A program made the position numbers and the translations under genes. The notes beneath the pieces were generated by a model. The model searched no databases, was not told the origin of the DNA, and saw nothing but the letters and a program-made list of their open reading frames with translations. From an uncultured archaeon (lineage in GTDB: Archaea; Aenigmatarchaeota; Aenigmatarchaeia; CG10238-14), in the NCBI GenBank assembly GCA_964372465.1, contig CAYJRA010000002.1, positions 16,024-80,023 on the forward strand: 64,000 nucleotides of DNA, read 5' to 3'. Positions 5,253-36,082 of this stretch are shown in pieces. The first letter of the stretch is position 1. Every line of letters starts with the position of its first letter.

Positions 5253-5263
5253 AGTTAATTGAA

Positions 5264-6124: not shown

Positions 6125-6187
6125 AATAACACCTTTCTAAAGTTTGAATAATAAGCTTTAAATCCTTTTTTTGAACTTCTGTAGCAA

Positions 6188-7447: not shown

Positions 7448-7448
7448 T

Positions 7449-8726: not shown

Positions 8727-8760
8727 TACATAAAAAGATTAAAATTTAAACGTAGATTTT

Positions 8761-9420: not shown

Positions 9421-9567
9421 TTCCAAAACATGGTATTTTGCAGAACTAAGAGCTTTGTGCCCAACCTTTATTTCTATTGACTTTAGATGCAAATGACTTA
9501 AGGTGCAAAGCTAGAACTAAAAGAAACTATTTAAATATACATTTTTCTCATATTATGAAGTGATTGT

Positions 9568-9888: not shown

Positions 9889-9929
9889 TTTTTTACATTT
9901 ATTAATAATAAAACATAAACTATTCGAAT

Positions 9930-10397
9930 ATGTTCCCATTTGGTCATATAGGATTCACTGCGTTTTTTGCTAATTTGTTGTCTTTGAATATTATATTTGC
10001 AATAATAGGGTCCCAGATACCAGATTTGATAGATAAACCACTAAACATGGTTGGCATATTACCAAATGCGAGAAACATAGGCCACACACTATTTACTGCT
10101 GGTCTGATACTGTTAATTTCATATATATTAACAAAAAAGAAAACATTCTCTATTTCTCTCGCTTTTGGGTCACTGATGCATTTGTTTGAAGATATACCAT
10201 ATTTTATTCCGTGGTTTTATCCTTTTATAAAATATAATTTTCCACGAGAATCATTCGGAATCACTTACGGTCTTGTCTGGTTTATGTTTGATGTTGCTGG
10301 TTTGATCCTTTTGTATCATGTTTATAAAAATAATTTTGAGTTTAGAAGATACGTGTCTAATATTTTAAATGGATTAAAAAACAAATTAAAAATGTGA
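9930..10397 (+). CDS. membrane-bound metal-dependent hydrolase-like protein (DUF457/YdjM-like)
   Basis: MFPFGHIGFT... start, 4-5 TM helices, conserved His/Asp positions (GHTLF, HLFED) typical of DUF457. Confidence 0.55.
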   Translation: MFPFGHIGFTAFFANLLSLNIIFAIIGSQIPDLIDKPLNMVGILPNARNIGHTLFTAGLILLISYILTKKKTFSISLAFGSLMHLFEDIPYFIPWFYPFIKYNFPRESFGITYGLVWFMFDVAGLILLYHVYKNNFEFRRYVSNILNGLKNKLKM

Positions 10398-12850
10398 TAA
10401 TCAAACTTGTAGTTTTGGATATGGATTATATTGTAGATAACAATCAAGGCATTATTAGATTGTTCTGCAAGGATGAAAATGGAAAATCTGTTTTAGTTGA
10501 AGATAGCGATTTTTATTCCTATTTTTATGTTCAACCAAAATTGGAAAAAATGGATAAAGTTTTGGATAAATTAAATAAAGGGAATTTTGCTAATTCCGAA
10601 CAAATTATGAAAATAGAAAAATTAACAAAAGAATTTTATGGAGAAAAAATAGAGTTAATAAAAATATTTGTTAAAAACCCTAGGAAAATAAACGATTTGA
10701 GAAATGAGGTAAAAAGCTGGGATATTGTAGAAAACCAATACGAGTATACCATATCCTTTCCTTATAGATATATTTTTGATAAAGAGATAGAACCAACGTC
10801 ATGGATTGAGGTAGAAGGAGAGAAAATAAAGTCTGATCTGCAAGTTGATTATTGCATAAAATCTAAATCAGTGGAAAAAATAAAACATCAATTTGATCCC
10901 GATTTCAAAGTATTGGCTTTTGATATAGAAACAGTTAAAGAAAAAGATGAAGAAAAAATAATAATGATTTCTTTGGCATCAAATAACAATTTTAAAAAGG
11001 TCATCACTAGTCATAGTTTGGAAAAACCATTAGATAGTGTAATTTCTGTTAGTAACGAAAAAGAAATTATTGAAAAATTCGTTGAAATTACCAAAAATGA
11101 AGATCCAGATTTTATAATAAGCTACAATGGTGACAGTTTTGATTTTCCAAAATTGAGGGAAAGATCTGAGAAACTGAAAGTGAAACTAATTTTAGGAAAA
11201 GACAATGAACAGATGAAATTTGTCAGAAAGGGCAGGCTATCAGCGGCATCAATTAATGGCAGAGTACATGTAGATGTGTTTGGTTTTATAGACCATATAT
11301 TGTTTTCATCCATGAAAACAGAAGTTTTGACACTGGATGCCGTTTCTCAAGAACTACTGGGCGTAGGAAAGAAAAAATTGAAATGGAAAGAAATTGAAGA
11401 ATCATGGAAACTGAAAAAAAATTTAGATGTTTTGATAGAATACTCATTAAGAGATTCTGAACTAACTTTGATGTTAGGTGAACATCTATTACCCCAGATA
11501 TTTTCTCTTTCTAGACTAACGTATTCTTTACCATTCGATACTTGTAGATATTATTACTCTCAATTAGTTGAAAACTTCTTTTCTCGAGAAGCAACTCAAA
11601 ATAAAAATTTACTTCCGAATAGACCTAAATATGAAGAGATAGAACAAAGAAAGGAAATGAAACCATATACGGGCAGTATAGTTATAGAACCTATGAAAGG
11701 TATACATTCTGATATTTTTGTTTTTGATTTTAAGTCGTTGTATCCGTCGATCATCGTTACACACAATATTTCTCCAGAAACATTTAATTGTAAATGTTGT
11801 AAAAAGAACGAAGTTCCCGGTTTAAATCACAATTTTTGTACTAAAAGAAAAGGATTCATCCCGTTGTATCTGGAAAGTATAATCAAAAAAAGGCATGAAG
11901 TAAAACAAAAGATGAAACAATTTCAAAAAAATAGTTCAGAATATAAAAAATTAGACAGTTACCAATACTCACTCAAAATCATTTCTAATGCAACTTATGG
12001 GTATCTGGGTTATCCAGGAGCTAGATGGTTTTGTAGAGAATGTGCCGAGTCAGCAGCTGCCTTTGGTAGATACTATATAACAAAGGTGATAGAAGACGCT
12101 AGAAATAATGGATTCAATGTCATTTATTCTGATACAGATTCCTGTTTCATTAATCTGCCTAATAAGAAGAAAGATGAAATAACCGATTCTTTAAACAAAT
12201 GGTTGATTAAATTGAATAAATCTTTGCCTGGAATCATGGAGTTAGAGTTAAGAAATATATATGCTGGAGGAATTTTTGTGTCCAGGCAAGGAGAAGAAAA
12301 GGGCGCCAAAAAGAGATATGCTTTAATTGATTATGATGGTAATTTAGAGATACGTGGCTTTGAAACAGTTAGAAGGGATTGGTGCGAATTGGCAAAAAAC
12401 ATTCAGCACGAAGTTTTAAAAATAATTTTACACGATAAAGATCCAAACAAAGCTGTTAATCTGGTTAAGCAGACTATAGATAAAATAAAATCCGGAAAAA
12501 CAAAGAAAGATGATTTGGTTATATTCACTCAATTAACAATGCCGTTGTCCTCATATAAACAAATTGGTCCACATGTTAAGGTTGCAATGAAAATGAGAGA
12601 ATCTGGCATTCCGATAACTGAAGGGACAATAATCCAATATGTTATTACAAAAGGAAATGGTAGTATATCTGATAGAGCAAAACATGCAGAAGAAGTGAAA
12701 GAAGGAGAATACGATCCAGAATACTATATTAACAATCAAGTATTACCGGCTGCTACGCGTGTTTTACAAGCATTAGAGATAACCGAAGATCAAGTTTTAT
12801 CTGGTAATATACAACCAAAATTGGGTAAATGGTTAAAAATTAAACAATAA
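10394..12850 (+). CDS. polB: family-B DNA polymerase
   Basis: Exo I FDIET, Exo II YNGDSFDFP, Exo III YSLRDSELT. Pol A DFKSLYPSII, Pol B KIISNATYGY, Pol C YSDTDS. No intein seen. Confidence 0.95.
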   Translation: MIIKLVVLDMDYIVDNNQGIIRLFCKDENGKSVLVEDSDFYSYFYVQPKLEKMDKVLDKLNKGNFANSEQIMKIEKLTKEFYGEKIELIKIFVKNPRKINDLRNEVKSWDIVENQYEYTISFPYRYIFDKEIEPTSWIEVEGEKIKSDLQVDYCIKSKSVEKIKHQFDPDFKVLAFDIETVKEKDEEKIIMISLASNNNFKKVITSHSLEKPLDSVISVSNEKEIIEKFVEITKNEDPDFIISYNGDSFDFPKLRERSEKLKVKLILGKDNEQMKFVRKGRLSAASINGRVHVDVFGFIDHILFSSMKTEVLTLDAVSQELLGVGKKKLKWKEIEESWKLKKNLDVLIEYSLRDSELTLMLGEHLLPQIFSLSRLTYSLPFDTCRYYYSQLVENFFSREATQNKNLLPNRPKYEEIEQRKEMKPYTGSIVIEPMKGIHSDIFVFDFKSLYPSIIVTHNISPETFNCKCCKKNEVPGLNHNFCTKRKGFIPLYLESIIKKRHEVKQKMKQFQKNSSEYKKLDSYQYSLKIISNATYGYLGYPGARWFCRECAESAAAFGRYYITKVIEDARNNGFNVIYSDTDSCFINLPNKKKDEITDSLNKWLIKLNKSLPGIMELELRNIYAGGIFVSRQGEEKGAKKRYALIDYDGNLEIRGFETVRRDWCELAKNIQHEVLKIILHDKDPNKAVNLVKQTIDKIKSGKTKKDDLVIFTQLTMPLSSYKQIGPHVKVAMKMRESGIPITEGTIIQYVITKGNGSISDRAKHAEEVKEGEYDPEYYINNQVLPAATRVLQALEITEDQVLSGNIQPKLGKWLKIKQ

Positions 12851-20502: not shown

Positions 20503-21600
20503 ATGCCAGTAAATAAAATTGCTGATTTTTCCTTGGAAACGACTCAAATATTAGATGAAAACGGGAATATTGATGAGAACATAATGCCCAAACTTTCTGA
20601 TGGTGATATAAAAGAGCTATATAGATTGATGGTTCAGACAAGAATTTTCGATGAAAAAGCATGGAAATTACAAAGACAGGGTAGAATAAGCACGTATGCT
20701 CCTATTAAAGGACAGGAAGCTAGTGATATCGGTACTTCTTTTGCTTTATCAAAAGATGATTGGATATTTCCAACTTACAGAAACATGGGTGCTTATATTA
20801 CTAGAGGTATGCCAATGGAAAAACTTTTACAATATTGGGGCGGAGATGAGAAAGGCCAGAAGATTCCTGATAATGTTAATACATTTACTTTAGCAATTCC
20901 TGTAGGCACGCAACCATTACATGCAGTTGGTTATGCATGGGCTGCAAAAAAGAGGAAGAAGAATATAGTAGTGTTAACATATATGGGAGAAGCAGCTACA
21001 AGTACCGGTGATTTTCATGAAGCAATGAATTTTGCAGGTGTGTTTAATCTGCCTGTTATATTTGTTGTTGAAAACAATCAATATGCAATTTCTGTCCCAA
21101 GAATCAAACAGACCAGATCCAAAACCATTGCGCAAAAAGCAATTGCGTATGGATTTGATGGCGTTCAGGTCGATGGTAATGATGTTTTTGCCGTGATCAA
21201 AGCGACTAAGGATGCGATTGAGAAAGCCAAACAGGATAAAGGTCCAACACTAATCGAATGCGTAACTTATAGAATTGGCCATCATACAACAGCAGATGAT
21301 TACACTAGATATAGAACAGAGGAAGAAGTTCAAAATTGGGTCCAAAAAGATCCAATTGAAAGATTGAGGAAATATATGGAAAATAAGAAATTATGGACTA
21401 AAGAATTTGGCGATAAAATATTGAAAGAAGCTGAAGAGAATGTCGAAAAGGCGGTTATTGCAATGGAATCATTACCTAAACCAAAACCAGACGAATTCTT
21501 TGATTATGTATTTGCAGAACAAACAAAAAATTTGAAAGAGCAGAGAGAATATTTGCTGAGATCGCTTGAAGAAAGAGAGAAAGAGGTAAGATTCCCTTAG
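20503..21600 (+). CDS. 2-oxoacid (pyruvate/branched-chain) dehydrogenase E1 alpha subunit
   Basis: TPP motif GEAATSTGDFHEAMNFA...VVENNQYAIS, 365 aa. Confidence 0.9.
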   Translation: MPVNKIADFSLETTQILDENGNIDENIMPKLSDGDIKELYRLMVQTRIFDEKAWKLQRQGRISTYAPIKGQEASDIGTSFALSKDDWIFPTYRNMGAYITRGMPMEKLLQYWGGDEKGQKIPDNVNTFTLAIPVGTQPLHAVGYAWAAKKRKKNIVVLTYMGEAATSTGDFHEAMNFAGVFNLPVIFVVENNQYAISVPRIKQTRSKTIAQKAIAYGFDGVQVDGNDVFAVIKATKDAIEKAKQDKGPTLIECVTYRIGHHTTADDYTRYRTEEEVQNWVQKDPIERLRKYMENKKLWTKEFGDKILKEAEENVEKAVIAMESLPKPKPDEFFDYVFAEQTKNLKEQREYLLRSLEEREKEVRFP

Positions 21601-21616
21601 TACACAAGGTGTCGAT

Positions 21617-22594
21617 ATGTCACAAGTGAATATGGTTCAAGCACTAAACCAAGCTTTGTTACAAGAGATGGAGAAAGACGAGAGCGTTTTGGTTTTAGGG
21701 GAAGATGTTGGTATTGATGGCGGAGTATTCAGAGTAACTGAAGGATTGCTGCAAAAATTTGGTGAAGAAAGAATAATAGATACACCATTAAGCGAATCTG
21801 GAATAATAGGCGCAGCAATAGGCATGGCTATTTATGGGTTAAAACCAGTTGCCGAAATTCAGTTCAGTGGGTTCATTTATTCAGCATTTGAACAACTAAT
21901 TTCTCATGCTGCAAGAATAAGAAACAGATCAAGAGGAAGATTTACCTGTCCCCTCGTTGTTAGAACTCCGTGCAGTTGGGTTAGTAGGGGATTGGAACAT
22001 CATGAAGAAAGTACTGAAGCATTATTTATCCACATACCAGGACTGAAGGTTGTGATGCCTTCCAATCCTTATGATGCTAAAGGACTTTTGATATCCTCGA
22101 TTAGAGACCCAGATCCAGTTATTTTTTTCGAACCCCTGAGATTATATCGTGCATTCAAACAAGAAGTCCCAGATGAAAGCTATACTATATCAATAGGTGA
22201 AGCTAAAATCATAAAAGAAGGTACAGATATTACTTTAATTTCTTATGGCGCTATGATGCAATCCGTTTTAGAAGCAGTAGATATATTAAAAAGCAATAAT
22301 ATTAACCCAGAAGTGATTGATCTCAGAACATTATCACCCTTAGATAGAGATACTATCTTAAAATCAATTCAAAAAACAGGAAGATGTGCTATCATCAATG
22401 AAGCACCTTTAACATGTGGGTTGAGTGCAGAAATCTCAGCAACTGTAAACGAAAGGGCACTTCTAAGTCTGGAAGCACCAGTCATTAGAATTACTGGTTT
22501 TGATACTAATGTACCTTTGGCAAAATTAGAGAACAATTATATCCCAGATGTAAGAAGAATAGTAGCCGAAGTCAGAAATTTAATGAAATTTTAA
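21617..22594 (+). CDS. 2-oxoacid dehydrogenase E1 beta subunit
   Basis: GEDVGIDGGVFRVT, IDTPLSESGIIG and PGLKVVMPSNPYDAKGLL, 325 aa. Confidence 0.9.
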   Translation: MSQVNMVQALNQALLQEMEKDESVLVLGEDVGIDGGVFRVTEGLLQKFGEERIIDTPLSESGIIGAAIGMAIYGLKPVAEIQFSGFIYSAFEQLISHAARIRNRSRGRFTCPLVVRTPCSWVSRGLEHHEESTEALFIHIPGLKVVMPSNPYDAKGLLISSIRDPDPVIFFEPLRLYRAFKQEVPDESYTISIGEAKIIKEGTDITLISYGAMMQSVLEAVDILKSNNINPEVIDLRTLSPLDRDTILKSIQKTGRCAIINEAPLTCGLSAEISATVNERALLSLEAPVIRITGFDTNVPLAKLENNYIPDVRRIVAEVRNLMKF

Positions 22595-22595
22595 A

Positions 22596-22955
22596 ATGGT
22601 TCAAATGACAGTTGAAATTTATAAACACGATACAGGTAGGTTATTTATTAGTCATTCGGATAAAAAACTAAGTACGGGTCTGTTACTTCTAAACCCCCAT
22701 ACTGAGTTTCAGAAACACAATAGGTCAGTCCAGGAGCAACTAGTGCAAGTTTTTGGAAGATGTACGATAAAAATTTTTGAAAATGGAAAAATTAAAGAAA
22801 TATCTTTGAAAGAAGGAGGAAAACTAAAAATTAGACCAAACCAGTACCACACCCATTCTAATCCATATGATAATATTTCTATTACTTTGTGGAAATTTGA
22901 GGGAGATATAACAGAGATTATAAGAAACTTAAGAAAAAATCTAAGGAGATTATAA
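22596..22955 (+). CDS. small cupin-like protein embedded in the dehydrogenase operon
   Basis: GGKLKIRPNQYHTHSN fits cupin motif 2 (G-x5-P-x3-H-x-H-x-N). Tight coupling: TAA-n-ATG upstream, TAATG overlap downstream. Confidence 0.5.
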   Translation: MVQMTVEIYKHDTGRLFISHSDKKLSTGLLLLNPHTEFQKHNRSVQEQLVQVFGRCTIKIFENGKIKEISLKEGGKLKIRPNQYHTHSNPYDNISITLWKFEGDITEIIRNLRKNLRRL

Positions 22956-24190
22956 TGTCATTTGAGTTTAAATTTCCAGATGTAGGAGAAGGAATACACG
23001 AAGGTGAATTAGTAAAGTGGTTAGTTAAAGAAGGAGACAAAATAAAAGCAGATCAGCCTATTGCAGAAATAGAGACTGATAAAGCTGTTGTTGAAATACC
23101 TTCTCCAAAAAATGGTGTTGTATTGAGGTTAAACTGGAAACCGGGAGATACTATTAAAGTTGGCGAGATTCTGCTTGTTTTAGGAGAAGAAGGTGAAAAG
23201 GCATCAGAAGTTCAGATAGAAAAACAAGAAATGAAATCTTTGGAAAAAATACAAGAAAAATTAGAAACACCATCAAATATTTTAAAACCTACTATATTTG
23301 CCACACCCGCAACTAAAAAAATAGCTAAGGAGTTGAATATTGATTTATCAAAAGTCGTGGGTACAGGTTCTAATGGGAGAATAACTGATCAAGATGTTAG
23401 AAATTATGCTAATAAAATTCAGAATATTAAACCCGAAATTTCTAAAGAAGAAATAAAGGCACCCAAAATTACTTTTGAAAAATACGGTGAAATTCTAAAA
23501 ATACCATTAAAAGGAATGAGAAAGACAATTGCAGAAAATATGGTTAGATCAAAGTTTACAGCCACTCATGTTACCCACATGGATGAAGTAGACATAACAG
23601 ATTTGGTTAAAGTAAGAGAGAAAGAAAAAAAATTAGCTGAAAATTATGGAATTCATCTCACATTCTTACCTTTTATAATAAAAGCATTATTAGCAGCATT
23701 GAAGGAGCACCCGTATTTGAATTCCAGTTTAGATGAAGAAAAGCAAGAGATTGTTATCAAAAAATATTATAATATAGGAATAGCTGTTCAAACATCAGAT
23801 GGGCTTATGGTACCTGTTGTAAAAAGAGTTGATGATAAAAGCATAATGGAATTAGCTAAGGAAATTCAAGATTTGGCTGAAAAAGCTAAAGCAAGAAGAA
23901 TAGACATAGAGGACATGAAAGGAGGAACATTTACAATAACTAATTACGGATCTATTGGAGGCATATATGGCACGCCAATAATTAATTATCCTGAAGTTGC
24001 TATTTTAGGTGTTGGTAGAATAATAGAAAAACCAGTCGTCAAAAACAAAAAGATAGTTATTAGAAAAATTTTACCATTATCCCTCACATTTGATCATAGA
24101 GTTGTTGATGGCGCTGAAGTAGCTGAATTTATGAATTCTGTTATAAGAAGATTAGAAGATCCTGATACGTTGTTAATGTATGTTGATTAG
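22955..24190 (+). CDS. 2-oxoacid dehydrogenase E2 (dihydrolipoamide acyltransferase)
   Basis: Lipoyl motif IETDKAVVEIPS, subunit-binding domain ATPATKKIAKELNIDLSKVVGTGSNGRIT, catalytic DHRVVDGA. Confidence 0.9.
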   Translation: MSFEFKFPDVGEGIHEGELVKWLVKEGDKIKADQPIAEIETDKAVVEIPSPKNGVVLRLNWKPGDTIKVGEILLVLGEEGEKASEVQIEKQEMKSLEKIQEKLETPSNILKPTIFATPATKKIAKELNIDLSKVVGTGSNGRITDQDVRNYANKIQNIKPEISKEEIKAPKITFEKYGEILKIPLKGMRKTIAENMVRSKFTATHVTHMDEVDITDLVKVREKEKKLAENYGIHLTFLPFIIKALLAALKEHPYLNSSLDEEKQEIVIKKYYNIGIAVQTSDGLMVPVVKRVDDKSIMELAKEIQDLAEKAKARRIDIEDMKGGTFTITNYGSIGGIYGTPIINYPEVAILGVGRIIEKPVVKNKKIVIRKILPLSLTFDHRVVDGAEVAEFMNSVIRRLEDPDTLLMYVD

Positions 24191-24462
24191 TTTCTTTGGC
24201 GTTTGTTTCTTCCGTATAGATACCAACCAGAAATTACTGATAAAGAGCCAAAAACCCCTACAGTATTTGGGATTATTACAGGAAAACTATTGATTTCTAT
24301 ACCATAAAATACCCAAATTATACTACCAAATATAAGAATAAAATAAGTTGTTACTGAGATGTCTTTTGCACTTTTTCTTTTAAATATTTTATAAGCTTGA
24401 AAAAAGCTAGATACGGCCATTATAACTCCAACAAATGTTGCCAATAAAGATAATGTTGTCAT
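24187..24462 (-). CDS. SemiSWEET-like (PQ-loop/MtN3) three-helix transporter
   Basis: 91 aa, three TM helices, FQAYKIFKRKSAKDIS (PQ-loop-like) after TM1. Confidence 0.65.
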   Translation of the reverse strand: MTTLSLLATFVGVIMAVSSFFQAYKIFKRKSAKDISVTTYFILIFGSIIWVFYGIEINSFPVIIPNTVGVFGSLSVISGWYLYGRNKRQRN

Positions 24463-25248: not shown

Positions 25249-26004
25249 TTATTTTTTATAGAGTTTGAATTGTTTTAATTTTCTCTTAGTTGAAAGAAGA
25301 TATTTTTTAGTTTTTTGTTCTCTTATTACAAACATATCGGCCTTTTCTTCTTCTTTGGCAGAATCGCGGTTGAACCCAGAGATTAAAGAAATCGGAGAAA
25401 ACAACCTTAATATGGAAAAGGAAAATTTAATAATTGAAGACTTCTCTTTTAGATGTGAAAGTTCATGCAACACAACTGATTCTATTTCCATTCTTTTTAG
25501 AATATCTAAAGCACCAACTGATAAAAACACGGCAGATTTAAAACTTTTGAACGAGAATGCTATTGGTTCTGCTTTGTCTAAAGCATATATTTTTGGTGTG
25601 TTGATTTTTAGTTTTTTGGAATATTTTTTGACAAAAAAATACAAATAACCATTTTTTATCTCCCTTTTTTTATTTGTTAATATATACAGAGATGGTATAA
25701 TAAAAAAACCTGATATGGAAGATAATATTAAAGTTGTTGGAATGGCATAAGATACCAACGAGACTATGCTATTATAGCAAGGCATACACGCTGCCCCGCA
25801 TCCTACATGAGTCCCAAACAAAACAAAAGGGAATATAAAAGTTGTTAAATGCGTATATATTAATGAGAGTCTTAATTTGGTTGAAATATTACTTTTTCTT
25901 AGAAAAAAGAAACTTATTAGTGATATTGCTAACGATATTGAAGATATAATAATTTTTTGTGGATCTAATATTAATCCAATAAAACACCCAATTTTTCCAA
26001 TCAT
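25249..26004 (-). CDS. BlaR1/M48-like membrane zinc protease (signal-transducing anti-repressor type)
   Basis: Four to five TM helices, HELSH (HExxH), downstream EEEKAD (ExxAD). Intramembrane Cys cluster GCGAACMPC. Its ATGA overlaps the upstream BlaI-like gene. Confidence 0.7.
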   Translation of the reverse strand: MIGKIGCFIGLILDPQKIIISSISLAISLISFFFLRKSNISTKLRLSLIYTHLTTFIFPFVLFGTHVGCGAACMPCYNSIVSLVSYAIPTTLILSSISGFFIIPSLYILTNKKREIKNGYLYFFVKKYSKKLKINTPKIYALDKAEPIAFSFKSFKSAVFLSVGALDILKRMEIESVVLHELSHLKEKSSIIKFSFSILRLFSPISLISGFNRDSAKEEEKADMFVIREQKTKKYLLSTKRKLKQFKLYKK

Positions 26005-26393
26005 TTATTCCCAACTCTTTTTGAAAATCTTTCATTAAAATAATTGACAGCAGACGGGCCAAAAACATCTATTAATTTGTTTATTGAATTTTCTATTATA
26101 GATTTTTCTAGTTGAGTTTTGTTTTCTGAGGGTGAATATATATAATGAGTTCCACCTCTACCATTTTCTACCTTTCTTTGAACCAACCCCTTTTTGTATA
26201 GTCTATCTAAAATGACGGCAATGCTTGTCAAAGCGACCTTTCTTTTTTTCTTTAACGTGTTGTATATATCTCTGACTTTGGCCTCGTTTTTTTCGAATAG
26301 CGTATTAATTACATCAGATTCTAACGGACTAAGAAAAAATTCTAGACCCTTCCTATCAAATCTTATTTTATTTATGTTAACCATTAATTTCAC
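26001..26393 (-). CDS. BlaI/MecI/CopY-family winged-helix repressor
   Basis: LSPLESDVINTLFEKNEAKVRDIYNTL...LTSIAVILDRLYKKGLVQRKVENGRGGTHYIYSP matches the Penicillinase_R pattern. Confidence 0.8.
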   Translation of the reverse strand: MKLMVNINKIRFDRKGLEFFLSPLESDVINTLFEKNEAKVRDIYNTLKKKRKVALTSIAVILDRLYKKGLVQRKVENGRGGTHYIYSPSENKTQLEKSIIENSINKLIDVFGPSAVNYFNERFSKRVGNK

Positions 26394-26540: not shown

Positions 26541-27239
26541 ATGATAAAAAAAGGCCATAATTTGACATCGCACAAATATTTTTATCATTTTTTAGTCCTA
26601 ATTGTTGGTTTGCTATTATTTAATCAACTAATGACATTGTATGTTTTTTCTAATTTAATTCCAAAAAAAGGACAGGCTGTTGATTTAAAAAATTTAAATA
26701 TAAAAATTGATGGTAAAACAGCTGTAGGCCCGGTTTTGTTATCTGAGGGTGAGTCATCTGTTATATCTGGTTATAAAACCAGGATTAAACCCATGCCAAC
26801 TATAAGTGAAATCCAGATTAAACCATCTACAGGCGACCCGGTTCAAGATTTAATAAACAATATTATTCCTACAGGGAAACCTTTTTATGGTGATGAAGCT
26901 GGCGTAAGTTTTGATGATCCTATAGAATCTTTGCAGGTATGGGGAAGTTACGACAGATCAATTAAGTTATCAGATCAAGAACAAGAGAGATGGAACAAAA
27001 TAACCAATTCATTCACTTGTGACTATTGTTGCGGCTCTCCGTTTAATCCAACAATCATAACAAGATGTGGATGTTCTCACGCAGCGGCTTGGAGAGGAAT
27101 AGCAAAATGGTTTTTGAAGAATTATCCAAAATACACAGATGCTGAAATATTCGGCGAAATGACAAGATGGAAAACACTTTGGTACCCTGGGCCTACAGTA
27201 CAAAGGATTTCTGTTGAGTCTCAAACCCTGGGGGCTTAA
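26541..27239 (+). CDS. membrane-anchored extracytoplasmic Cys-rich protein (C-x2-CC-x11-C-x-C-x-H)
   Basis: One N-terminal TM helix. C-terminal motif CDYCCGSPFNPTIITRCGCSH. No family recognised. Confidence 0.6.
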   Translation: MIKKGHNLTSHKYFYHFLVLIVGLLLFNQLMTLYVFSNLIPKKGQAVDLKNLNIKIDGKTAVGPVLLSEGESSVISGYKTRIKPMPTISEIQIKPSTGDPVQDLINNIIPTGKPFYGDEAGVSFDDPIESLQVWGSYDRSIKLSDQEQERWNKITNSFTCDYCCGSPFNPTIITRCGCSHAAAWRGIAKWFLKNYPKYTDAEIFGEMTRWKTLWYPGPTVQRISVESQTLGA

Positions 27240-27278
27240 TATTTATGTGTTTATTAATAAATTAAAGGAGGTTAGAAA

Positions 27279-27500
27279 ATGAATACAAATTTATTGTTGA
27301 GTGTTTTGATTGGAGCAATGGTATTAGTTTCAGTGTTGCAAGCTATACAATTGTTTAGTCTTCAATCGGCTCTAAGTGGTGGAATATCACTAGGTACTTC
27401 AGGCAGTAAATCTGCAAGTGCTTCATCAAGTGGACAAAGTGGATCGGCTCAATTACCATCCAATTTGGGAAACTTACCTCAGATGGTTGGTGGTTGTTAA
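27279..27500 (+). CDS. 73-aa secreted/anchored Ser-Gly-rich peptide ending in -LPQMVGGC
   Basis: Strong SD (AAAGGAGGT, 7 nt before the ATG). N-terminal hydrophobic helix, low-complexity SGSKSASASSSGQSGS, and a single Cys as the last residue. Confidence 0.65.
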   Translation: MNTNLLLSVLIGAMVLVSVLQAIQLFSLQSALSGGISLGTSGSKSASASSSGQSGSAQLPSNLGNLPQMVGGC

Positions 27501-27522
27501 TTTTTTTATTGGATGATGTTTA

Positions 27523-28704
27523 ATGGCCGATAATAGAAGACATAAGTCTAGAAGCAAGGAACAAAGAATTTCCATAAATTTGGATACGTTATTTTTATTT
27601 TTATTTTTAGCTTTAGTCTTGGCTCAAATTTTTAACTTACTCACCGTTTTTGGTATAACAAACAGAATAAAAGGAGAAACAGATAAACAGAAAGAATTGG
27701 CTAGACCAGCCGATTTAAAACTCATGAAGATTATAGACAGTTCTTGCAAATCATGTTTTGAAATCAATGATATTATAGAAGAAATTAAACAAAAAAATGT
27801 AAAACTTTTGGATGAGAAAACGGTTGAGTTTAATTCTCAAGAAGGCAGAGGCTTTATTTCTAAATATAACATACAAAAAATTCCAGCGTTAATTATAACA
27901 GGTGAAGTTAATAAATCGGTCGATTTGGAAGAATATTTTAAAGAAAATGGAAAGATTGTTGGAAATGATACAAAAATCATTTTATTTACAAATATTAGAC
28001 CACCTTATTTTGATTTAACCAGGAATAAAGTTGCCGGCCTTGTTTCCATAATAAGTATAGTTGATACAGATTGCAAAGAGTGTTCATCTTTAAATAATGT
28101 TTTAGTTGCTTTTAAAGCGTCAAATGTAGAGGTATCAGATACAAAAACAGTAGAATACAATTCAGATGAAGGTCGCGAATTGATAAGGAAATACGAAATT
28201 CAGAGGATCCCAGCTATTGTTATATCGAATGATATAAAAGAATATGAAGATATCTATTTTGCTCTATCCAGACTAAATGTTACTGAAAAAGATGGCAATT
28301 ATGCATTGCACACAATTTCTCCGCCATATTTAGATGTAAAATCGGGAAAGACTATGGGCTTAACAACATTAATAATGTTGAGTGACTCGTCTTGTGATGA
28401 ATGCTATAATGTAACAACTCACAAGTCTATAATACCCAATTTTGGTATAATTATATCAAAAGAATCATCTTATGATATTAGTTCTTCAGAAGGCAAAAAA
28501 TTAGTTGGAAAATATAATATAACAAAGGTCCCAACTATCGTTTTATCTTCAGACGCTAAAGAATATCCACAATTTTTACAAGTTTGGAATTCTGTCGGTA
28601 CAGTTGAAAAAGATAATTGGTTTGTTTTTAGAAAAATAGAAGTCATGGGAACATATAAAGACTTAACGTCAAATGAAGTGGTTGCTCCTCCAGAAGGGCA
28701 ATAA
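27523..28704 (+). CDS. membrane-anchored protein with three tandem thioredoxin-like repeats, each with CxxC
   Basis: N-terminal TM. Repeats of about 105 aa carry SCKSC, DCKEC and SCDEC, each followed by KIPA/RIPA/KVPT (cis-Pro position). Confidence 0.7.
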   Translation: MADNRRHKSRSKEQRISINLDTLFLFLFLALVLAQIFNLLTVFGITNRIKGETDKQKELARPADLKLMKIIDSSCKSCFEINDIIEEIKQKNVKLLDEKTVEFNSQEGRGFISKYNIQKIPALIITGEVNKSVDLEEYFKENGKIVGNDTKIILFTNIRPPYFDLTRNKVAGLVSIISIVDTDCKECSSLNNVLVAFKASNVEVSDTKTVEYNSDEGRELIRKYEIQRIPAIVISNDIKEYEDIYFALSRLNVTEKDGNYALHTISPPYLDVKSGKTMGLTTLIMLSDSSCDECYNVTTHKSIIPNFGIIISKESSYDISSSEGKKLVGKYNITKVPTIVLSSDAKEYPQFLQVWNSVGTVEKDNWFVFRKIEVMGTYKDLTSNEVVAPPEGQ

Positions 28705-28742
28705 CTTAAATAGTTACCTTTTCAAATTTTGTAAAGGATAGC

Positions 28743-29753
28743 ATGAAAATATTGAATTATTTTTTGATCTTATTTTTTAGTGTACATTACATCAATTTAG
28801 TTTTAGCTTATGAGGCAGACTTTCCTCATAACGATGGAATACCCGAAAATTTGATAAAAGTTAAAATAGAAAGCTTGTCAGAGGTTCAAAAACTAACTAT
28901 ATTATCTGCATTTGTTGGCGGTATATTGTTATTTTTTGCGCCATGCAGCATAGGTTTACTTCCAGCTTATTTTGCCTCTACATTCAAAAATAAAACAAAT
29001 CTTGTATTGATGACTTTAGCCTTTTTTATCGGTTTTGCATCATTCAATGCTTTCTTAGGTCTGGGAGCTTCTATATTGGGTAATTGGATATTAATATATC
29101 AACCAAAAATTGTCTTGTTATCCGGTTTGTTAATAATTGTGTTTGGTCTAATGTTAATTTTTGGAATCTCTTTTAGTTTATTTAACATGAAAAATAAAAT
29201 TGGAAACAGTTTTTTTGAAAACATTATTTTTGGTGCATTATTTTCATTTGGTTATGCCGGGTGTGCTGGGCCAATAGTATTTAGCATACTTACTTTAGCA
29301 TCTACTTTACCCATTATTTTAGCTGCCTTTTTGATGTTTGTTTATTCTCTTGGTATGTCTATACCGTTAATTATAATCTCCTTACTTTTTGATAAAATAA
29401 AGATTTTTGATAGGTCAATATTCAGAAAATCTATTGAATTTAAGTTATTTGAAAAAACAATATACACGAGTGTTACTAACATAATTGGTGGTCTTATTTT
29501 TGTGCTTTTGGGACTTGTGTATTTAGTTTATAATAGTACAGGTGTTTTTCATCAAATACCACTGAATATATCGCAACCTATTTATGATTTCGTTTATGAC
29601 AAACAAAAATTATTTGTTAACTTGTTTAGTTCTTCTTTTTATAATATAATAGGGATAAGTCTTATTGCCATAATATTTTTCTTTATTGTTAAAAGTATGT
29701 TGAATTCTAGTACAATATCAAAAAATAAAAGAGGCATAGATAAATTTAAATAA
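28743..29753 (+). CDS. CcdA/DsbD-family transmembrane thiol-disulfide electron transporter
   Basis: Polytopic. FAPCSIGLLPAY and GYAGCAGPIVF are the two conserved intramembrane Cys motifs. Confidence 0.75.
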   Translation: MKILNYFLILFFSVHYINLVLAYEADFPHNDGIPENLIKVKIESLSEVQKLTILSAFVGGILLFFAPCSIGLLPAYFASTFKNKTNLVLMTLAFFIGFASFNAFLGLGASILGNWILIYQPKIVLLSGLLIIVFGLMLIFGISFSLFNMKNKIGNSFFENIIFGALFSFGYAGCAGPIVFSILTLASTLPIILAAFLMFVYSLGMSIPLIIISLLFDKIKIFDRSIFRKSIEFKLFEKTIYTSVTNIIGGLIFVLLGLVYLVYNSTGVFHQIPLNISQPIYDFVYDKQKLFVNLFSSSFYNIIGISLIAIIFFFIVKSMLNSSTISKNKRGIDKFK

Positions 29754-29775
29754 CAAATTAGTAAACATAATAAAA

Positions 29776-30468
29776 GTGAATGCAATGAAAAAATACGAAT
29801 GCGGAGTATGTAAGAGAAAATTTGGTTCTGAAATAGCTTTGAATCAACACATGAACTCTAAACACGAAAAAAAATCTGAGATCAAGAAAACTAAAAAAGA
29901 AATTAAATTGAAATTTCCTAAGAAGATAGGCATATATATAACATTAGTTTCGGTTTTGCTGGTAGTTGGTTTTATTGTTTATAGAGGAATCAATTCATCC
30001 TCCGGAGCAGAAATAGGACAAATAGGTTCAACTCATATTCATGCTGATATAGGTATATTTTTAAATGGAAAACAAATGACACCTATACCACCACAATATT
30101 ATGTGAGAAGTCCATATGTACATTTTGAAGGCGGTCCCGGAGCTGGAACGGTGATACATATACATGCAACTGGAGTTCCTCTTAGCTTGTTATTTAAATC
30201 TCTGAGTGTAGATTTTGATTCAAAATGTTTTACTTCATATAGTGGACAAAAATATTGTAGCGATGATCAAAAAACTTTGAAAATGTTTGTAAAACATAAA
30301 GACGGAAACTGGACACAAAATTATGAAAACGAAAAATATGTGTTTGAAGATTTAGATAAAATTTTGATAACTTATGGCAATGAAAGCATGGAAGGCATTG
30401 AAAAACAAATGGATTCTGTGACAGATTATTCTAAAGACAATTCTGGTAGAAAAATGCCATTGAAATAA
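29776..30468 (+). CDS. C2H2 zinc-finger / TM / His-rich extracytoplasmic domain protein
   Basis: YECGVCKRKFGSEIALNQHMNSKH (C-x2-C-x12-H-x4-H), one TM helix, then STHIHADIGIF and GTVIHIHATG His motifs. Confidence 0.6.
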   Translation: MNAMKKYECGVCKRKFGSEIALNQHMNSKHEKKSEIKKTKKEIKLKFPKKIGIYITLVSVLLVVGFIVYRGINSSSGAEIGQIGSTHIHADIGIFLNGKQMTPIPPQYYVRSPYVHFEGGPGAGTVIHIHATGVPLSLLFKSLSVDFDSKCFTSYSGQKYCSDDQKTLKMFVKHKDGNWTQNYENEKYVFEDLDKILITYGNESMEGIEKQMDSVTDYSKDNSGRKMPLK

Positions 30469-30518: not shown

Positions 30519-30767
30519 ATGGCCGCAATAGAATCAGAAATTGGTGTAAAATTAATTTATATATTAGGATTAAGCAACATAATAGGGCTATTATTGGTTT
30601 TCTTTTCATGCAGATGTCTAGTTGGAATTAATTTTGTCAAAAAAATGTGGAAATATCGATGGTATCAGAAATTTTATAATTACCATTGTTACTATTGGTG
30701 GTTTTTCTTTATTTCTGTATTGATGCATACTTTAATTGCATTTTTAGTTTTTGGCATTCCTTTTTAA
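30519..30767 (+). CDS. small membrane protein (2 TM, aromatic-rich loop)
   Basis: 82-aa ORF with two hydrophobic helices. No family recognised. Confidence 0.4.
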   Translation: MAAIESEIGVKLIYILGLSNIIGLLLVFFSCRCLVGINFVKKMWKYRWYQKFYNYHCYYWWFFFISVLMHTLIAFLVFGIPF

Positions 30768-33266: not shown

Positions 33267-33656
33267 TTAATTTTTTTCTTTCAAGTTATATTTGTATATT
33301 TTATACATTTCTTCAATTTTTTCATCATCTATATGTTTTCCAAAAGATTTATGCGGTAACAACCCACCGCCAAACGATTTAGGTATATGCATCAACTCAT
33401 GGATTAGAGTCTTATCCTGTTCTTCTTTACTTAACTTATCAAATTTATGTGATATAACTTCAATAACATAATGTGCCCTCATACTCAACGCTTTTTGCCA
33501 AATTTTAGGAAAACTCCATATACGTGCTAAAGCTCTAGATTTTGATCCATAACTTCTTATACAAAACACTCTTTCCATATCAACATGTTTTATTTGTAGA
33601 ACATCTACTAGACGATTTAATCTCTCTTTTATATCTAAAGCCGTTTCGAATTTCAT
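33267..33656 (-). CDS. small putative zinc metallopeptidase (HExxH)
   Basis: 129 aa, LIHELMHIPKSFGGGLLPH. Resembles the archaeal predicted-metallopeptidase family. Confidence 0.6.
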   Translation of the reverse strand: MKFETALDIKERLNRLVDVLQIKHVDMERVFCIRSYGSKSRALARIWSFPKIWQKALSMRAHYVIEVISHKFDKLSKEEQDKTLIHELMHIPKSFGGGLLPHKSFGKHIDDEKIEEMYKIYKYNLKEKN

Positions 33657-33694
33657 AGAATCAGTTAGTTTAATTTATTATATAAAGATTCATT

Positions 33695-34690
33695 CTAACT
33701 TCCCATATATTTTACAAATATAGTTTTTGCCTGGTCTTCACTTTTAACCCCTGATACTATAGATCTACCATTTTTATATAGTGAAATTTGCTTATCACCA
33801 CTTTTAAAATGGAGCAAATATTTGTTATAATAAACCTCTCCCGATTTTTTTAATCTGTCAGAAATGTTTTTGAAATTGTTAATTCTCGTATCAGTATTTA
33901 TCTGAAAAGAATTTTGTCCACACATTCGTGTTATTTTTGATCCAATAGTCCCATTTAAGAAAACGAAATTCTTTTTTACGCAAGTCTCACATTTTGGATT
34001 TTTATTTATATGCAATGACTCAAAAGTATCATTTAGCATATCCACTCTAAAAATTTTTTTTGGCGCCTTTCCTATAGAAAGTATTTTTAATGCTTCCCTT
34101 ATCTGTATAGATGCTATTATAGAAGGAAGAGAATTAGATATACCAGCACTTTCACATGTTTCTAAGTCTTCAGTTCTTGGTATTTCTCTAAAAACGCATC
34201 TAAAACAAATTTTCTCAGGCAAAATATTGAAACTAGCACCAACGCTTCCAATTACCCCGCCATATACCCACGGAATTTTGTTTTTAATGCAAATATCGTT
34301 AATAAGAAATCTACTCTCGAGATTATCAGTGCCGTCAACGACTAAGTCAATATCTTTTAACAGTTTCCAGGCATTTTTAAAATTAAAATCATCAACCATT
34401 GCATTAATTTTTACTTTTGGGTGAATGTGATGAATTCTCTTTTTAGCAGCTATAGCTTTCGGTACGCCTATATCGCTTTTTGTGTATAATATCTGATTTT
34501 CCAGATTTCTTAATTCTACAAAGTCTCTGTCTATTACAGTTAATTTTTTTATACCATTTTTAGCTAATAATTCAGCAGATCTACTTCCTAAAGCGCCAAC
34601 TCCTATTACAGCTACATGCTTTTTTGACAATTTATTATGACTGAATTTGATATTTTTTGTTCTTAATTTTGTTATGTTCATACCTTTCAT
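33695..34690 (-). CDS. ThiF/MoeB/HesA-family E1-like adenylyltransferase with about 90-aa C-terminal extension
   Basis: VAVIGVGALGSRSAELLAKNGIKKLTVIDRDFVELRNLENQ. CxxC pairs CFRC and CETC. Extra C-terminal domain ...ISLYKNGRSIVSGVKSEDQAKTIF. Confidence 0.85.
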   Translation of the reverse strand: MKGMNITKLRTKNIKFSHNKLSKKHVAVIGVGALGSRSAELLAKNGIKKLTVIDRDFVELRNLENQILYTKSDIGVPKAIAAKKRIHHIHPKVKINAMVDDFNFKNAWKLLKDIDLVVDGTDNLESRFLINDICIKNKIPWVYGGVIGSVGASFNILPEKICFRCVFREIPRTEDLETCESAGISNSLPSIIASIQIREALKILSIGKAPKKIFRVDMLNDTFESLHINKNPKCETCVKKNFVFLNGTIGSKITRMCGQNSFQINTDTRINNFKNISDRLKKSGEVYYNKYLLHFKSGDKQISLYKNGRSIVSGVKSEDQAKTIFVKYMGS

Positions 34691-34723
34691 AAGGAAATTA
34701 AAATGTTAATATTAAAAATCACT

Positions 34724-36082
34724 CTAAAAACCGTTATTAAGCTCTTCTTTAAATATACTAATTACCTTGTTCTTTATCCCACCTGGCATGGTTTTAGAAT
34801 TAAATACGCCAAAGAATTTTTTATACAATTCGTCTTCCCTCTCTTTAGCTTCATCTAAATATTTTTGTTTGAATAATTGAATAACGGGTCCAGTCTCACC
34901 TCTTTTATATGCCAAATAAAATGCAAATAACAATTCATCTCTATTTAATCCACTGTCGTCATAAGGTATGCCGTGCTTTGTGGTTCCATTGAACAACGAA
35001 AACATTCTTGCATATTTTTCGTTGAACAGGTTTTCTCTAAATCCAAGATTCTTTACATCTACGCCTATTGCTTTCAAGAACACAAAAATTCTTGCACATT
35101 TTGTACACATGTGGCACCATTGGTTTTCTGGGGATGGCGGATAATTATCAGGGAAACAAGAAAATTGAAACTGTCCAAGATTTTTATATCTATTGTGTAA
35201 TATTTTTATTACAGCCAACTCGTTTATAGGCTCCACTATACTAAAAACGCCTGTTTTATTGTTAGTTATTATTTTCATTAGATTGCTTAATTCGATTGTC
35301 CAGTCGCTAGTTTGGTCAAAAACCGGATATGATCTGTAGCCCTCGGAATTTATGTAGAAATCATTACAGCTTTTTTCATTACCAAAAATAACAAATTTTA
35401 TTTTGTTTGCATCCACTATGGGTAAAGAATGCATGGCATATTGTGTTAATTCGCTTCCATAACCCCATTCTGTATCAGGTTTGTTAAAATTCGTAGCATC
35501 ACATAGATCATAAAAGTTCGTGTTGACTCTTACGATGTTTTTATTAAGTTTTTTTGAAAAAACCTTTGAGTATCTTCTTTTTATTTTAGTTTCTATTGGG
35601 AGCGATGGCGTTTCAAAATATATTAAATCATTGTCTAGTCCTATTTCATCACATATTCCAAGAGTGACTAGGCTTTCCTTTCCAAATGTAAAGTTAATCA
35701 ATGCTTTTTCATCAGGTTCAAAATCACTCTCAGGTAATTTCATATTGTAATCCTCAAAATCAAACTCTAGATTTATGAATTTCATTAAGAACTGTGAGGT
35801 GGATATCTTATCGGCATCTGTCGAATAGGGTATATATTTTATCATCATTTGATAAACCCACGGCTTCATTAATGGCTCTGCTGTGTTGAATTTAATTTTA
35901 TTTTCATCAAAAATCATAGGAAGATGGAAGGTTCCTAAGAATGGTAAATTGTCCAATAAAAAATTTTTCATTCCATTTTTGTAGTTTTTCCAAGATGTAG
36001 TATTATATCTAATGAAATATTTTCTTCCCAGCACATTCGTGTGCATTCCGCTTCTTGTTAAATGTGATTTTACTTCTAACAT
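34724..36082 (-). CDS. QueC-like / PP-loop-superfamily protein with degenerate PP-loop and N- and C-terminal extensions (putative)
   Basis: Motifs follow the order and spacing of QueC: TFGKES (for SGGxDS), FGNEKSCND...YPVFDQ, SIVEPINEL, FSCF, then CHMCTKCARIF (C-x2-C-x2-C-x-R). Confidence 0.45.
   Translation of the reverse strand: MLEVKSHLTRSGMHTNVLGRKYFIRYNTTSWKNYKNGMKNFLLDNLPFLGTFHLPMIFDENKIKFNTAEPLMKPWVYQMMIKYIPYSTDADKISTSQFLMKFINLEFDFEDYNMKLPESDFEPDEKALINFTFGKESLVTLGICDEIGLDNDLIYFETPSLPIETKIKRRYSKVFSKKLNKNIVRVNTNFYDLCDATNFNKPDTEWGYGSELTQYAMHSLPIVDANKIKFVIFGNEKSCNDFYINSEGYRSYPVFDQTSDWTIELSNLMKIITNNKTGVFSIVEPINELAVIKILHNRYKNLGQFQFSCFPDNYPPSPENQWCHMCTKCARIFVFLKAIGVDVKNLGFRENLFNEKYARMFSLFNGTTKHGIPYDDSGLNRDELLFAFYLAYKRGETGPVIQLFKQKYLDEAKEREDELYKKFFGVFNSKTMPGGIKNKVISIFKEELNNGF

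Follow-up and report, generated by a model that had tools for sequence, protein, structure and literature searches.

A syntenic cysteine- and histidine-rich gene module of DPANN archaea as a candidate relay of reducing power to the cell envelope

The logic of a membrane conduit that serves a thioredoxin fold, which in turn serves an effector, is known from several described systems. In the Scs system, a DsbD-like protein works together with thiol oxidoreductases that bind Cu(I), and in Proteus and Caulobacter ScsC forms trimers (PMC10907172, PMC8900818, PMC5524982). In the CcdA-ResA/StoA and CcdA-Etrx-MsrAB2 systems of Gram-positive bacteria, the line runs from CcdA via an anchored or lipoprotein thioredoxin-fold protein to a dedicated terminal enzyme (PMC3914529). 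The DNA considered here, hereafter the window, is a 64-kb stretch (~32% G+C) of contig CAYJRA010000002.1 from an uncultured archaeon. It carries a module of five genes, p1 to p5 (Table 1), whose closest named relatives lie in Aenigmarchaeota/Aenigmatarchaeota metagenome-assembled genomes (MAGs) of the DPANN group. The module is read here, with a probability of about one half, as a regulated, DPANN-specific envelope thiol-reducing relay that would be built largely from new parts: although the logic of conduit, thioredoxin fold and effector is known, three of the five proteins, a split arm and a candidate CPxC membrane conduit are new.

Table 1. Genes and operator-like sites of the module and its surroundings, in coordinates of the window
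Feature	Coordinates	Strand	Description
p1	26541..27239	+	TM (transmembrane)-anchored extracytoplasmic domain, new family, 232 aa
p2	27279..27500	+	TM-anchored arm peptide, 73 aa
p3	27523..28704	+	TM-anchored, three thioredoxin/PDO (protein disulfide oxidoreductase)-like units
p4	28743..29753	+	Predicted CcdA/DsbD_TM-type membrane thiol-disulfide conduit
p5	29776..30468	+	C2H2 finger, one TM segment and His-rich outer domain
p6	30519..30767	+	82 aa, two TM segments, CRC motif in the first; doubtful module member
BlaR-like membrane metalloprotease	25249..26004	-	251 aa
BlaI/MecI/CopY-family winged-helix repressor	26001..26393	-	130 aa, PF03965
Operator-like dyad 1 TTACAAATTATGTAA	26425..26439		BlaI-proximal side of the divergent intergenic region
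Operator-like dyad 2 TTACAATATTTGTAA	26481..26495		46 bp upstream of the p1 start codon

An earlier note, made from the letters of the window alone, had described five co-directional, closely spaced genes. All five open reading frames (ORFs) are in place on the plus strand at 26541–30468, with spacers of 39, 22, 38 and 22 bp. It had read p1 as a membrane-anchored protein with the motif C-x2-CC-x11-C-x-C-x-H, p2 as a 73-aa peptide with one C-terminal cysteine, p3 as three tandem CxxC thioredoxin folds, p4 as a CcdA/DsbD-type conduit with both intramembrane cysteines, and p5 as a C2H2 finger, a transmembrane segment and an outer domain with HIHAD/IHIHAT motifs, the whole lying divergently from a BlaI/BlaR1-like switch. 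These descriptions hold up in the analysis that follows, that of p4 as a prediction from its profile match and conserved cysteines. The same is true of the note's view that the genes do not serve cytochrome c maturation: no window ORF of at least 80 aa contains a CxxCH or a WWD (W[GA]x[FYW..]WxWD) motif, and none of the 30 largest gene families in the neighbourhoods of 80 related loci resembles ResB or ResC. With these features wanting, System II maturation (CcdA-ResA-ResB-ResC) was rejected.

Among the described systems, DsbD/ScsBCD would be closest in logic to the proposed relay, and Scs may be regarded, by analogy, as its nearest system-level counterpart. In both, a DsbD-superfamily conduit stands beside thioredoxin-fold oxidoreductases outside the cytoplasm, a small membrane protein has no explained role, and envelope-stress control and a connection of copper to thiol redox would be common to the two (PMC10907172, PMC8900818, PMC5524982). 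The three catalytic thioredoxin units that Scs obtains from trimeric ScsC are here three covalent tandem units of p3. The resemblance of p4 and p3 to Scs is at the superfamily level only, whereas p1, p2 and p5 are without homologues in Scs/Dsb and without relatives in the libraries searched. Further, p4 is a minimal CcdA and has none of the periplasmic domains that DsbD and ScsB carry, regulation is of the BlaI/BlaR or Cys-loop MarR type in place of CpxRA, and the host, unlike the Gram-negative bacteria with Scs/Dsb, is an archaeon without an outer-membrane-bounded periplasm. A parallel might also be struck with the Gram-positive pairs, in which CcdA likewise supplies a membrane-anchored thioredoxin-fold protein. 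Unlike those, the window is without ResB/ResC, Msr and cytochrome c genes, its thioredoxin protein has three PDO-like units, and the terminal partner would be a new Cys5-His domain with a separate arm.

The distribution of the genes indicates how far they belong together. One genome of each GTDB species (185,579 genomes) was scanned with a pattern, and 124 stretches with p1 were confirmed by tblastn, the best 80 of which were kept; ORFs were called in these 80 loci (numbered L001 onwards) and searched with the window proteins, and synteny was counted only where the flank sufficed. The loci are labelled as Woesearchaeota, Pacearchaeota, Aenigmatarchaeota, Nanoarchaeota, Iainarchaeota and Micrarchaeota, several bearing generic or other labels only. 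On this basis, p2 lies within 2 kb of p1 in 56 of 57 loci, p3 within 2.5 kb in 55 of 57 and p5 within 5 kb in 41 of 45, while a CcdA-type gene is found within 5 kb of p1 in only 6 of 27 well-flanked loci. The arrangement of p1, p2, p3 and p5 is far beyond chance, and the evolutionary unit is p1, p2 and p3, with p5, rather than five equal genes. Thus, the five-gene module of the earlier note stands for p1-p2-p3 with p5, which are conserved together, but not for p4, which is no constant member. Because the orthologues are syntenic instead of scattered, the Cys/His motifs of p1 to p5 are conserved in relatives, and no characterised pathway was matched in Pfam, NCBIfam, the PDB or the literature, the module survives the three outcomes that the note had named as speaking against it.

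At the centre of this unit stands p1, which carries the motif C160-x2-C163-C164-x11-C176-G-C178-x-H180 behind one N-terminal transmembrane segment; a single such segment with basic residues on its N-side is common to p1, p2, p3 and p5. All five cysteines and His180 are invariant in 120 homologues of ~50% identity, where 30 columns are invariant, including the block GSP..PT.I..CGC.H, and the invariant motif of the family can be written as FTCDYCCGSP-x6-TIITxCGCxH. A word-indexed search with p1 gave 212 matches, all unannotated and all in DPANN MAGs, and an exhaustive profile search recovered just 273 clusters (50% identity) among 1.84 billion protein representatives. No match to p1, p2 or the outer domain of p5 was obtained in Pfam and NCBIfam scans, and a PDB sequence profile search with p1 returned no relative at E<=1. 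Three families, namely the Cys-rich domain, the single-Cys arm and the five-His domain, are thus without relatives in Pfam-A, NCBIfam and PDB sequences. Literature searches found no publication on the motifs MVGGC or CDYCCG, nor one on this system under DPANN thioredoxin/CcdA, and no paper or database entry was found that describes the p1, p2 or p5 families, the split arm or the CPxC conduit.

An AlphaFold2 model of p1 from the 120-sequence alignment (pLDDT 92.3, pTM 0.78) matches no solved fold (Foldseek against the PDB: best E=1.3, TM<0.2), and p1 as modelled is a new fold. The model places the first Cys motif within short strands and CGC-x-H where a helix begins, and this predicted arrangement of cysteines and histidine resembles a knuckle-plus-helix metal site. 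One family from the module neighbourhoods, marked by GGPCCCxCW, is distantly homologous to p1 (hhalign 92%, E=5e-7). A broader likeness exists to the PCYCGC lipoproteins (PF13798) and to DUF1573, which are also extracytoplasmic with clustered CC/CxC motifs, although neither Pfam model matches p1 and any kinship would be remote. DUF1573, with its SCGCT motif, is counted among the UGC selenoprotein families (PMC9312934), and for this reason a redox role of CGC motifs appears plausible by analogy. Fused p1 genes are flanked by DUF1573 genes in L081 and L082. In L081 (Logan ERR15087788), an operon of ~17 genes at 1409–11040 (+) encodes three p1 paralogues (two arm-fused, one a Rhodanese-p1-arm protein), two p2 peptides, a CDxCGM protein, a VKOR-type thioredoxin-like protein, a Cys-rich membrane protein, CcdA, a three-unit thioredoxin, a SfLAP/DsbD-like protein and three DUF1573 (SCGCT) proteins, the first of which has an N-terminal CPCCGSP...CCGG reminiscent of p1.

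The second member, p2, consists of one transmembrane segment, a Ser/Gly/Ala linker and the terminus LPQMVGGC. It adjoins p1 in 77 of 79 loci, and its MVGGC tail is invariant in 77 loci. The general layout of what may be called the arm is a membrane anchor, or the body of p1, followed by a variable Ser/Gly/Ala linker of ~30 residues and the invariant octapeptide LPxMVGGC-COOH, whose last residue is the only cysteine of the arm. In 4 of the first 22 p1 homologues, LPxMVGGC stands at the C-terminus of p1 itself; in a divergent p1 tier (CEYCCG...ACGCAHS) this fusion is the rule, and 139 collected proteins of more than 120 aa end in (M/Q)VGGC. Two further fusions extend the series, Rhodanese-p1-arm (P0253) and, in a Desulfobacterales MAG, FKBP-p1-arm. 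Across the 80 loci, the tail occurs on stand-alone p2 or on p1-domain proteins only, never on p3, p5 or other families, and a search for other tail-bearing families yielded solely stand-alone p2 peptides among the best 120 matches listed. Since most family clusters have the tail on the p1 domain itself and no other family bears it, p1 and p2 are, judging from these fusions, one functional unit, i.e., two halves of what is a single protein in most relatives. Within the membrane, Gln21 of p2 is invariant, and conserved polar residues in the transmembrane segments of p1 (FNQ), p2 (Q..QL) and p3 (Q/S..N) hint at an association of the helices.

This tight association of peptide and Cys-rich protein also bears on a precursor-peptide reading, by which p2 would be a ribosomally synthesized and post-translationally modified peptide (RiPP) precursor or a secreted thiol peptide with p1 as its maturase: despite the small gene directly after a Cys-rich one and the invariant C-terminal octapeptide, this is most improbable, as the supposed core is invariant and the remainder variable, the reverse of what most RiPPs show, p1 usually carries the peptide as its covalent C-terminus, the stand-alone form has its own membrane anchor, and no YcaO, radical SAM, LanM, protease or exporter genes appeared in the Pfam scan and neighbourhood families. 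Other identities of p2 were rejected by eye: it lacks the (K/R)(G/A) prepilin cleavage site of type IV pilin-like proteins, and its conserved motif is not followed by the transmembrane helix of an archaeosortase-type sorting signal. An Lgt-like gene (bacterial-type prolipoprotein diacylglyceryl transferase), assigned by eye from the motif HGGLSFHGG...GRLGNF.NGELYG and unusual for archaea, lies directly upstream of p1 in L019, L025, L026 and L057, with a Woesearchaeota label; any link to the terminal cysteine of p2 would be pure speculation.

Flexible C-terminal cysteine tails that shuttle to thioredoxin occur in class Ia ribonucleotide reductase, PAPS (3'-phosphoadenosine-5'-phosphosulfate) reductase, MsrA, high-Mr thioredoxin reductase (TrxR) and MerA. 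The arm shares with SoxY (GGCGG), DsrC/TusE, MerA, high-Mr TrxR, class Ia ribonucleotide reductase and PAPS reductase a Gly-flanked cysteine near the C-terminus, and such tails visit both an active site and an external partner, often thioredoxin. In SoxY and DsrC, the tails serve as covalent carriers (PMC5336275). The arm is unlike them in that its cysteine is the very last residue, in that LPxMVGGC is unrelated to their sequences, and in that a gene of its own, with a membrane anchor, can encode it; no homology was detected between the arm and SoxY, DsrC/TusE, MerA, TrxR, ribonucleotide reductase or PAPS reductase. An identity of p2 with SoxY itself was rejected, with its tail ending in MVGGC on a transmembrane peptide with a low-complexity linker and no Sox families in the neighbourhoods.

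The third member of the unit exceeds the cut-offs for Thioredoxin_3 (PF13192), Thioredoxin (PF00085) and Thioredoxin_2 (PF13098), and its CxxC motifs at 75–78, 184–187 and 291–294 are conserved, together with three cis-Pro positions, in 69 sequences. The nearest solved relatives of the units of p3 are the archaeal PDOs 1J08 and 1A8L (E=1e-5), which likewise have tandem thioredoxin-fold units, each with CxxC. PDOs are cytoplasmic with two units, whereas p3 is anchored outside with three, and it is no PDO equivalog, with 45.1 bits against a TIGR02187 cut-off of 185. Its neighbour p4 only just passes DsbD_TM (PF02683), whose cut-off is 27.1 bits, with a score of 29.5; in NCBIfam, it aligns with the DsbD portion of TsoB, a rhodanese/DsbD fusion (E=4.8e-12). 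It has 8–9 hydrophobic segments, and its FAPCSIGLLP and AGCAGPIV are kept as sPCg...lP and tpC.gP in 18 homologues, so that both intramembrane cysteines of the predicted conduit are conserved. CcdA is linked to the module in ~20 of the 80 loci; in these, the next gene is nearly always a member of the p5 family, in two gene orders, and p5 lies directly downstream of CcdA in at least nine loci of different lineages.

What takes the place of CcdA elsewhere may be a second membrane domain. Around half of the p1 homologues are ~400 aa long, with an additional N-terminal four-helix membrane domain that has an invariant CPvCQ at the predicted outer end of a helix and ktC..c in a Lys-rich, predicted cytoplasmic segment before p1's own anchor. 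Examples are found in the long p1 homologues of L003–L079 (e.g., residues 1–165 of P0032); some loci encode it in a gene of its own upstream, and the p1 of the window is without it. Of the loci flanked by 4 kb or more on each side, 19 have the CPxC domain only, 6 CcdA only, 3 both and 1 neither (Fisher p=0.0011); over all loci the complementarity reaches p=6.5e-5, and both values ignore the relatedness of the loci. Loci of both types occur under several phylum labels. Profile comparison gave no reason to treat the domain as a homologue of CcdA (hhalign probability 0.3%), and its likeness to the HCPLCT membrane family is weak (12%). This pattern suggests that CcdA and an unrelated CPxC membrane domain can replace each other, and the four-helix domain is a candidate for a new transmembrane thiol conduit. 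If so, it would follow from the complementarity that p1 receives what CcdA delivers, namely reducing equivalents, and this is the strongest single argument for the relay.

A redox relay is well supported by the gene anatomy, and the direction and order of electron flow that we infer are as follows. Reducing equivalents would cross the membrane via CcdA (p4) or, in other lineages, via the CPxC/CxxC four-helix domain, and would next be taken up by the membrane-anchored triple thioredoxin. By thiol-disulfide exchange, p3 would pass them to the single cysteine of the p2 arm, which would swing into the Cys5-His centre of p1, although the order from p3 to p2/p1 could be reversed. As to the substrate, p1 and p2 might together act as a thioredoxin-recycled reductase or isomerase for damaged surface thiols; alternatively, they might form a reduced thiolate trap for thiophilic metals, most likely Cu(I). 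The five histidines of p5 would bind a metal, and the overall role would be to shield surface thiols from metal or oxidant damage.

In the outer domain of p5, H87, H89, H116, H128 and H130 are invariant and C151 and C161 nearly so. It stands behind a C2H2 finger (PF12874), which a Lys-rich linker joins to the single transmembrane segment; the start codon is probably the ATG at 29785. An AlphaFold2 model of p5 has an overall pLDDT of 88 and returned only weak, beta-grasp-like Foldseek matches at E ~0.1–0.2, including 3U7Z ('putative metal binding protein') and the transcobalamin beta domain (E ~0.2), and in the PDB sequence profile search the zinc finger alone found a match; as modelled, the fold is nearly new. 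Many p5 paralogues carry an extra four-Cys motif, DGxCDxCGM...C...C. The layout of an N-terminal cytoplasmic C2H2 finger, a Lys-rich linker and a transmembrane segment recurs on unrelated extracytoplasmic domains, being carried by the His-rich p5 and by a VKOR-type thioredoxin-like domain (F15, and L011 at 10558–11199). The next gene on the same strand, p6, begins 50 bp after p5 and has no Pfam match. It was considered as a sixth member and rejected, since L003 alone yielded a homologue and the closest relatives, L001 and L002, have none; p6 may have been added locally, perhaps as a small membrane protein with a Cys pair, and would then stand outside the module.

The module is flanked by what appears to be its switch. 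The BlaI-like protein scores 50.3 bits against PF03965 (cut-off 22.6), and the protease gene on the same minus strand overlaps its gene by 4 nt. The protease has four predicted transmembrane segments and an HExxH motif (LHELSH). It scores above the cut-off for M48 (25.1 bits) and below that for M56 (PF05569; 22.7 against 31), and LHEL.H and EE..aD are conserved in 34 homologues, Cys69/Cys76 in at least 60%. It is not BlaR1/MecR1 (blaR1_generic, 19.3 against 400) and ends after the protease domain, with no C-terminal sensor. The pair thus resembles BlaI/BlaR1 and CopY systems in the translational coupling of a PF03965 repressor to an HExxH membrane protease and in the TACA/TGTA dyads of the divergent promoter; unlike BlaR1, the protease is without a penicillin-binding sensor, and unlike CopY, the repressor is without CxCx4CxC. 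Direct copper sensing of the CopY type was rejected on these grounds: the repressor reaches 30.6 bits against the CopY_TcrY (TIGR02698) cut-off of 121.95, and its C-terminus, ...FNERFSKRVGNK, contains no cysteine.

The divergent intergenic region, 147 bp in length, holds both matches to TTACA-N5-TGTAA that occur in the 64-kb window, where 0.16 would be expected. Among relatives, 13 of 25 intergenic regions between BlaI and p1 contain TACA-N5/6-TGTA, often in pairs, whereas the loci as a whole have ~0.05 such dyads per kb. TACA/TGTA half-sites are those of BlaI/MecI/CopY operators, and cop boxes and bla operators have shorter spacers between half-sites than the N5 seen here. BlaI lies upstream of p1 in 23 of 55 well-flanked loci, and BlaR co-occurs with BlaI; when an alternative regulator is counted as well, the figure rises to 35 of 55. 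This alternative, F7, is a membrane-tethered MarR/DUF7343 protein found upstream of p1 where BlaI/BlaR are absent, and in 23 of its 29 members the only cysteines are a C-x4-7-C pair in a predicted outward loop between two transmembrane helices. Both BlaI/BlaR and F7 would seem suited to sensing the state of outside thiols or metals. In the window, the BlaI-like repressor would bind both dyads and keep both divergent operons off, and the BlaR-like protease would relieve this repression under envelope stress, the presumed inducing signal.

Several points weigh against the relay. The complementarity statistic takes no account of phylogeny, and CcdA is linked to the module in a minority of loci (the 6 of 27 within 5 kb). 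The five cysteines and histidine of p1, in their predicted knuckle-plus-helix arrangement, could be a structural zinc or Fe-S site, with the arm as the sole reactive thiol. On the side of the stressor, rhodanese fusions and neighbours favour sulfane sulfur over metal, the window has neither CopA nor a Met-rich gene, and the BlaI-like protein is without the CopY metal site.

The earlier note had spoken of redox or metal (Cu/Zn) handling, and of these the redox part fits the anatomy, while the link to copper comes from hints in the neighbourhoods of other loci, none of them in the window. Copper would still be the best-supported specific stressor because of the Met-rich insertions and the CopA and DUF2933 neighbours (six loci each), the CDxCGM motif, the five-His domain of p5 and the CopY-like family of the repressor; a relay with copper specificity is nonetheless a tentative proposal. 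Bolder, with a substantial though minority chance, is the notion that p1 with its arm represents a new class of extracytoplasmic carrier-arm enzyme, with a new fold and a Cys5-His centre that is possibly a metal or Fe-S site. In such a class, a substrate or intermediate might be covalently bound or coordinated to the terminal cysteine, fed by CcdA or the new CPxC/CxxC conduit. It might then define a DPANN-specific pathway beyond mere repair of the Dsb kind, e.g., one by which cells in sulfidic groundwater take up or detoxify soft metals or sulfane sulfur, a suggestion of no greater probability.

The neighbourhoods bear on the rivals of the relay. In 54 loci, an NTF2-like exported protein directly follows p3; redox families nearby include DsbA-like proteins, glutaredoxin and TrxR, and in the window a glutaredoxin gene lies 10 kb from the module. 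MerA-like enzymes lie within a few kb of the module in L013 (13373–14782), L044 (6660–8090) and L070 (5306–6754); they are pyridine-nucleotide disulfide oxidoreductases that show the MerA core signature, with GGTCVNVGC at the active site and ...CC(V/T)E at the C-terminus.

The unlikely alternative that fares best is soft-metal trafficking by ligand exchange in the manner of Mer proteins or copper chaperones, in which the cysteines would bind Cu(I), Hg(II) or another thiophilic metal and pass it from the arm via the Cys5-His centre of p1 to the membrane Cys pairs of the CPxC domain, for import or sequestration, while thioredoxin and CcdA would merely keep the ligands reduced. The CPxC domain does have an outer CPxC and a cytoplasmic CxxC like MerT; this similarity is not significant, as the domain has no Pfam match and reaches MerT only at E=0.031, with 14.7 bits against a cut-off of 32.9. 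That is the sole MerT match, obtained on the N-terminal domain of the long p1 homologues, and an identity with MerT/MerP was rejected. Also in favour are the fusions of a similar four-TM CHxIC domain to CDxCGM and a p5 domain in L006 and L059, the Met/His-rich or Met-rich (and CDxCGM) proteins that are the sole recurrent insertions between p1 and p2 (10 of 69 pairs), the MerA-like and CopA genes and the five invariant histidines of p5. They are to be set against a window with no metal exporter or reductase, an invariant partner, the triple thioredoxin, that is dispensable for Mer systems, and the replacement of the CPxC domain by CcdA, which is an electron conduit and not a metal carrier.

Less likely still is a sulfane-sulfur carrier, in which the arm cysteine would hold a persulfide or thiosulfonate that is loaded by a rhodanese, processed by p1 and reduced or unloaded by p3. 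A GGC-COOH on a flexible linker is what covalent carriers such as SoxYZ would lead one to expect (PMC5336275), but it is GGC and not GGCGG, with neither a SoxY fold nor a SoxZ partner. The Rhodanese-p1-arm fusion P0253 sits in an operon with CcdA and a three-unit thioredoxin, exported rhodaneses and an HCPLCT-membrane-rhodanese fusion adjoin paralogous p1-p2 pairs, and the NCBIfam match of p4 is itself a rhodanese/DsbD fusion. Rhodaneses are nevertheless present in only ~7 of 27 well-flanked loci and absent from the window, and no Sox, Dsr, Psr or sulfur-assimilation genes lie nearby.

A further rival is oxidative folding, with p3 as an extracytoplasmic protein disulfide isomerase (PDI) that introduces disulfides into secreted proteins, p1 and p2 (perhaps with metal-bound p5) as a new DsbB/VKOR/Erv-like re-oxidant for organisms without quinones, and CcdA serving the isomerase branch only. 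The CcdA/CPxC complementarity argues instead for outward electron flow to p1, in which no flavin, quinone or oxidant site can be recognised. In favour of the idea, p3 is PDO/PDI-like, with CxxC in all three units. Erv2 has a CGC tail, which the CxxCC and CGC motifs with the shuttle arm recall, and the FKBP-p1-arm fusion and the DsbA-like genes of 10 loci would be at home in such a system. Yet the family is patchy (124 stretches in 185,579 species genomes), unlike a housekeeping folding catalyst, and a repressor/protease switch is typical of stress responses; the idea appears improbable.

Several other features of the window may be recorded. At 33267–36082 (-), a PhageMetallopep gene (PF18894), a ThiF/E1-like gene and a gene for a 452-aa protein without a Pfam match stand in a row, which may be a ubiquitin-like or sulfur-transfer cassette. 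A 91-aa semiSWEET/PQ-loop transporter (PF03083) is encoded at 24187–24462 (-) beside pyruvate dehydrogenase genes; the latter, E1alpha, E1beta and E2 at 20503–24190 (+), are interrupted by a 119-aa ORF (22596–22955) that has no Pfam match and overlaps or abuts both neighbours. At 55654–55718 (-), the Rfam tRNA model scores 29.1 against a gathering threshold of 29 bits, and ARAGORN reported no tRNA anywhere in the window. Either a false positive or an atypical DPANN tRNA may lie behind the Rfam match.

The genomes of DPANN archaea are minimal, few of these organisms have been cultivated, and the chemistry of their surfaces, where they meet their hosts, is poorly known. Against this background, the module is among the most strongly syntenic sets of unknown genes in several DPANN phyla, and it is tractable, with small ectodomains and a candidate operator and repressor already located. 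If the reading as a thiol-reducing relay is true, the CPxC domain would be a second, non-homologous answer to the problem solved by CcdA/DsbD, and p1 and p2 would show in split form the 'swinging cysteine tail', which elsewhere is known solely from within enzymes. The relay as a whole would then be the first candidate pathway of reducing power to the envelope of DPANN archaea.

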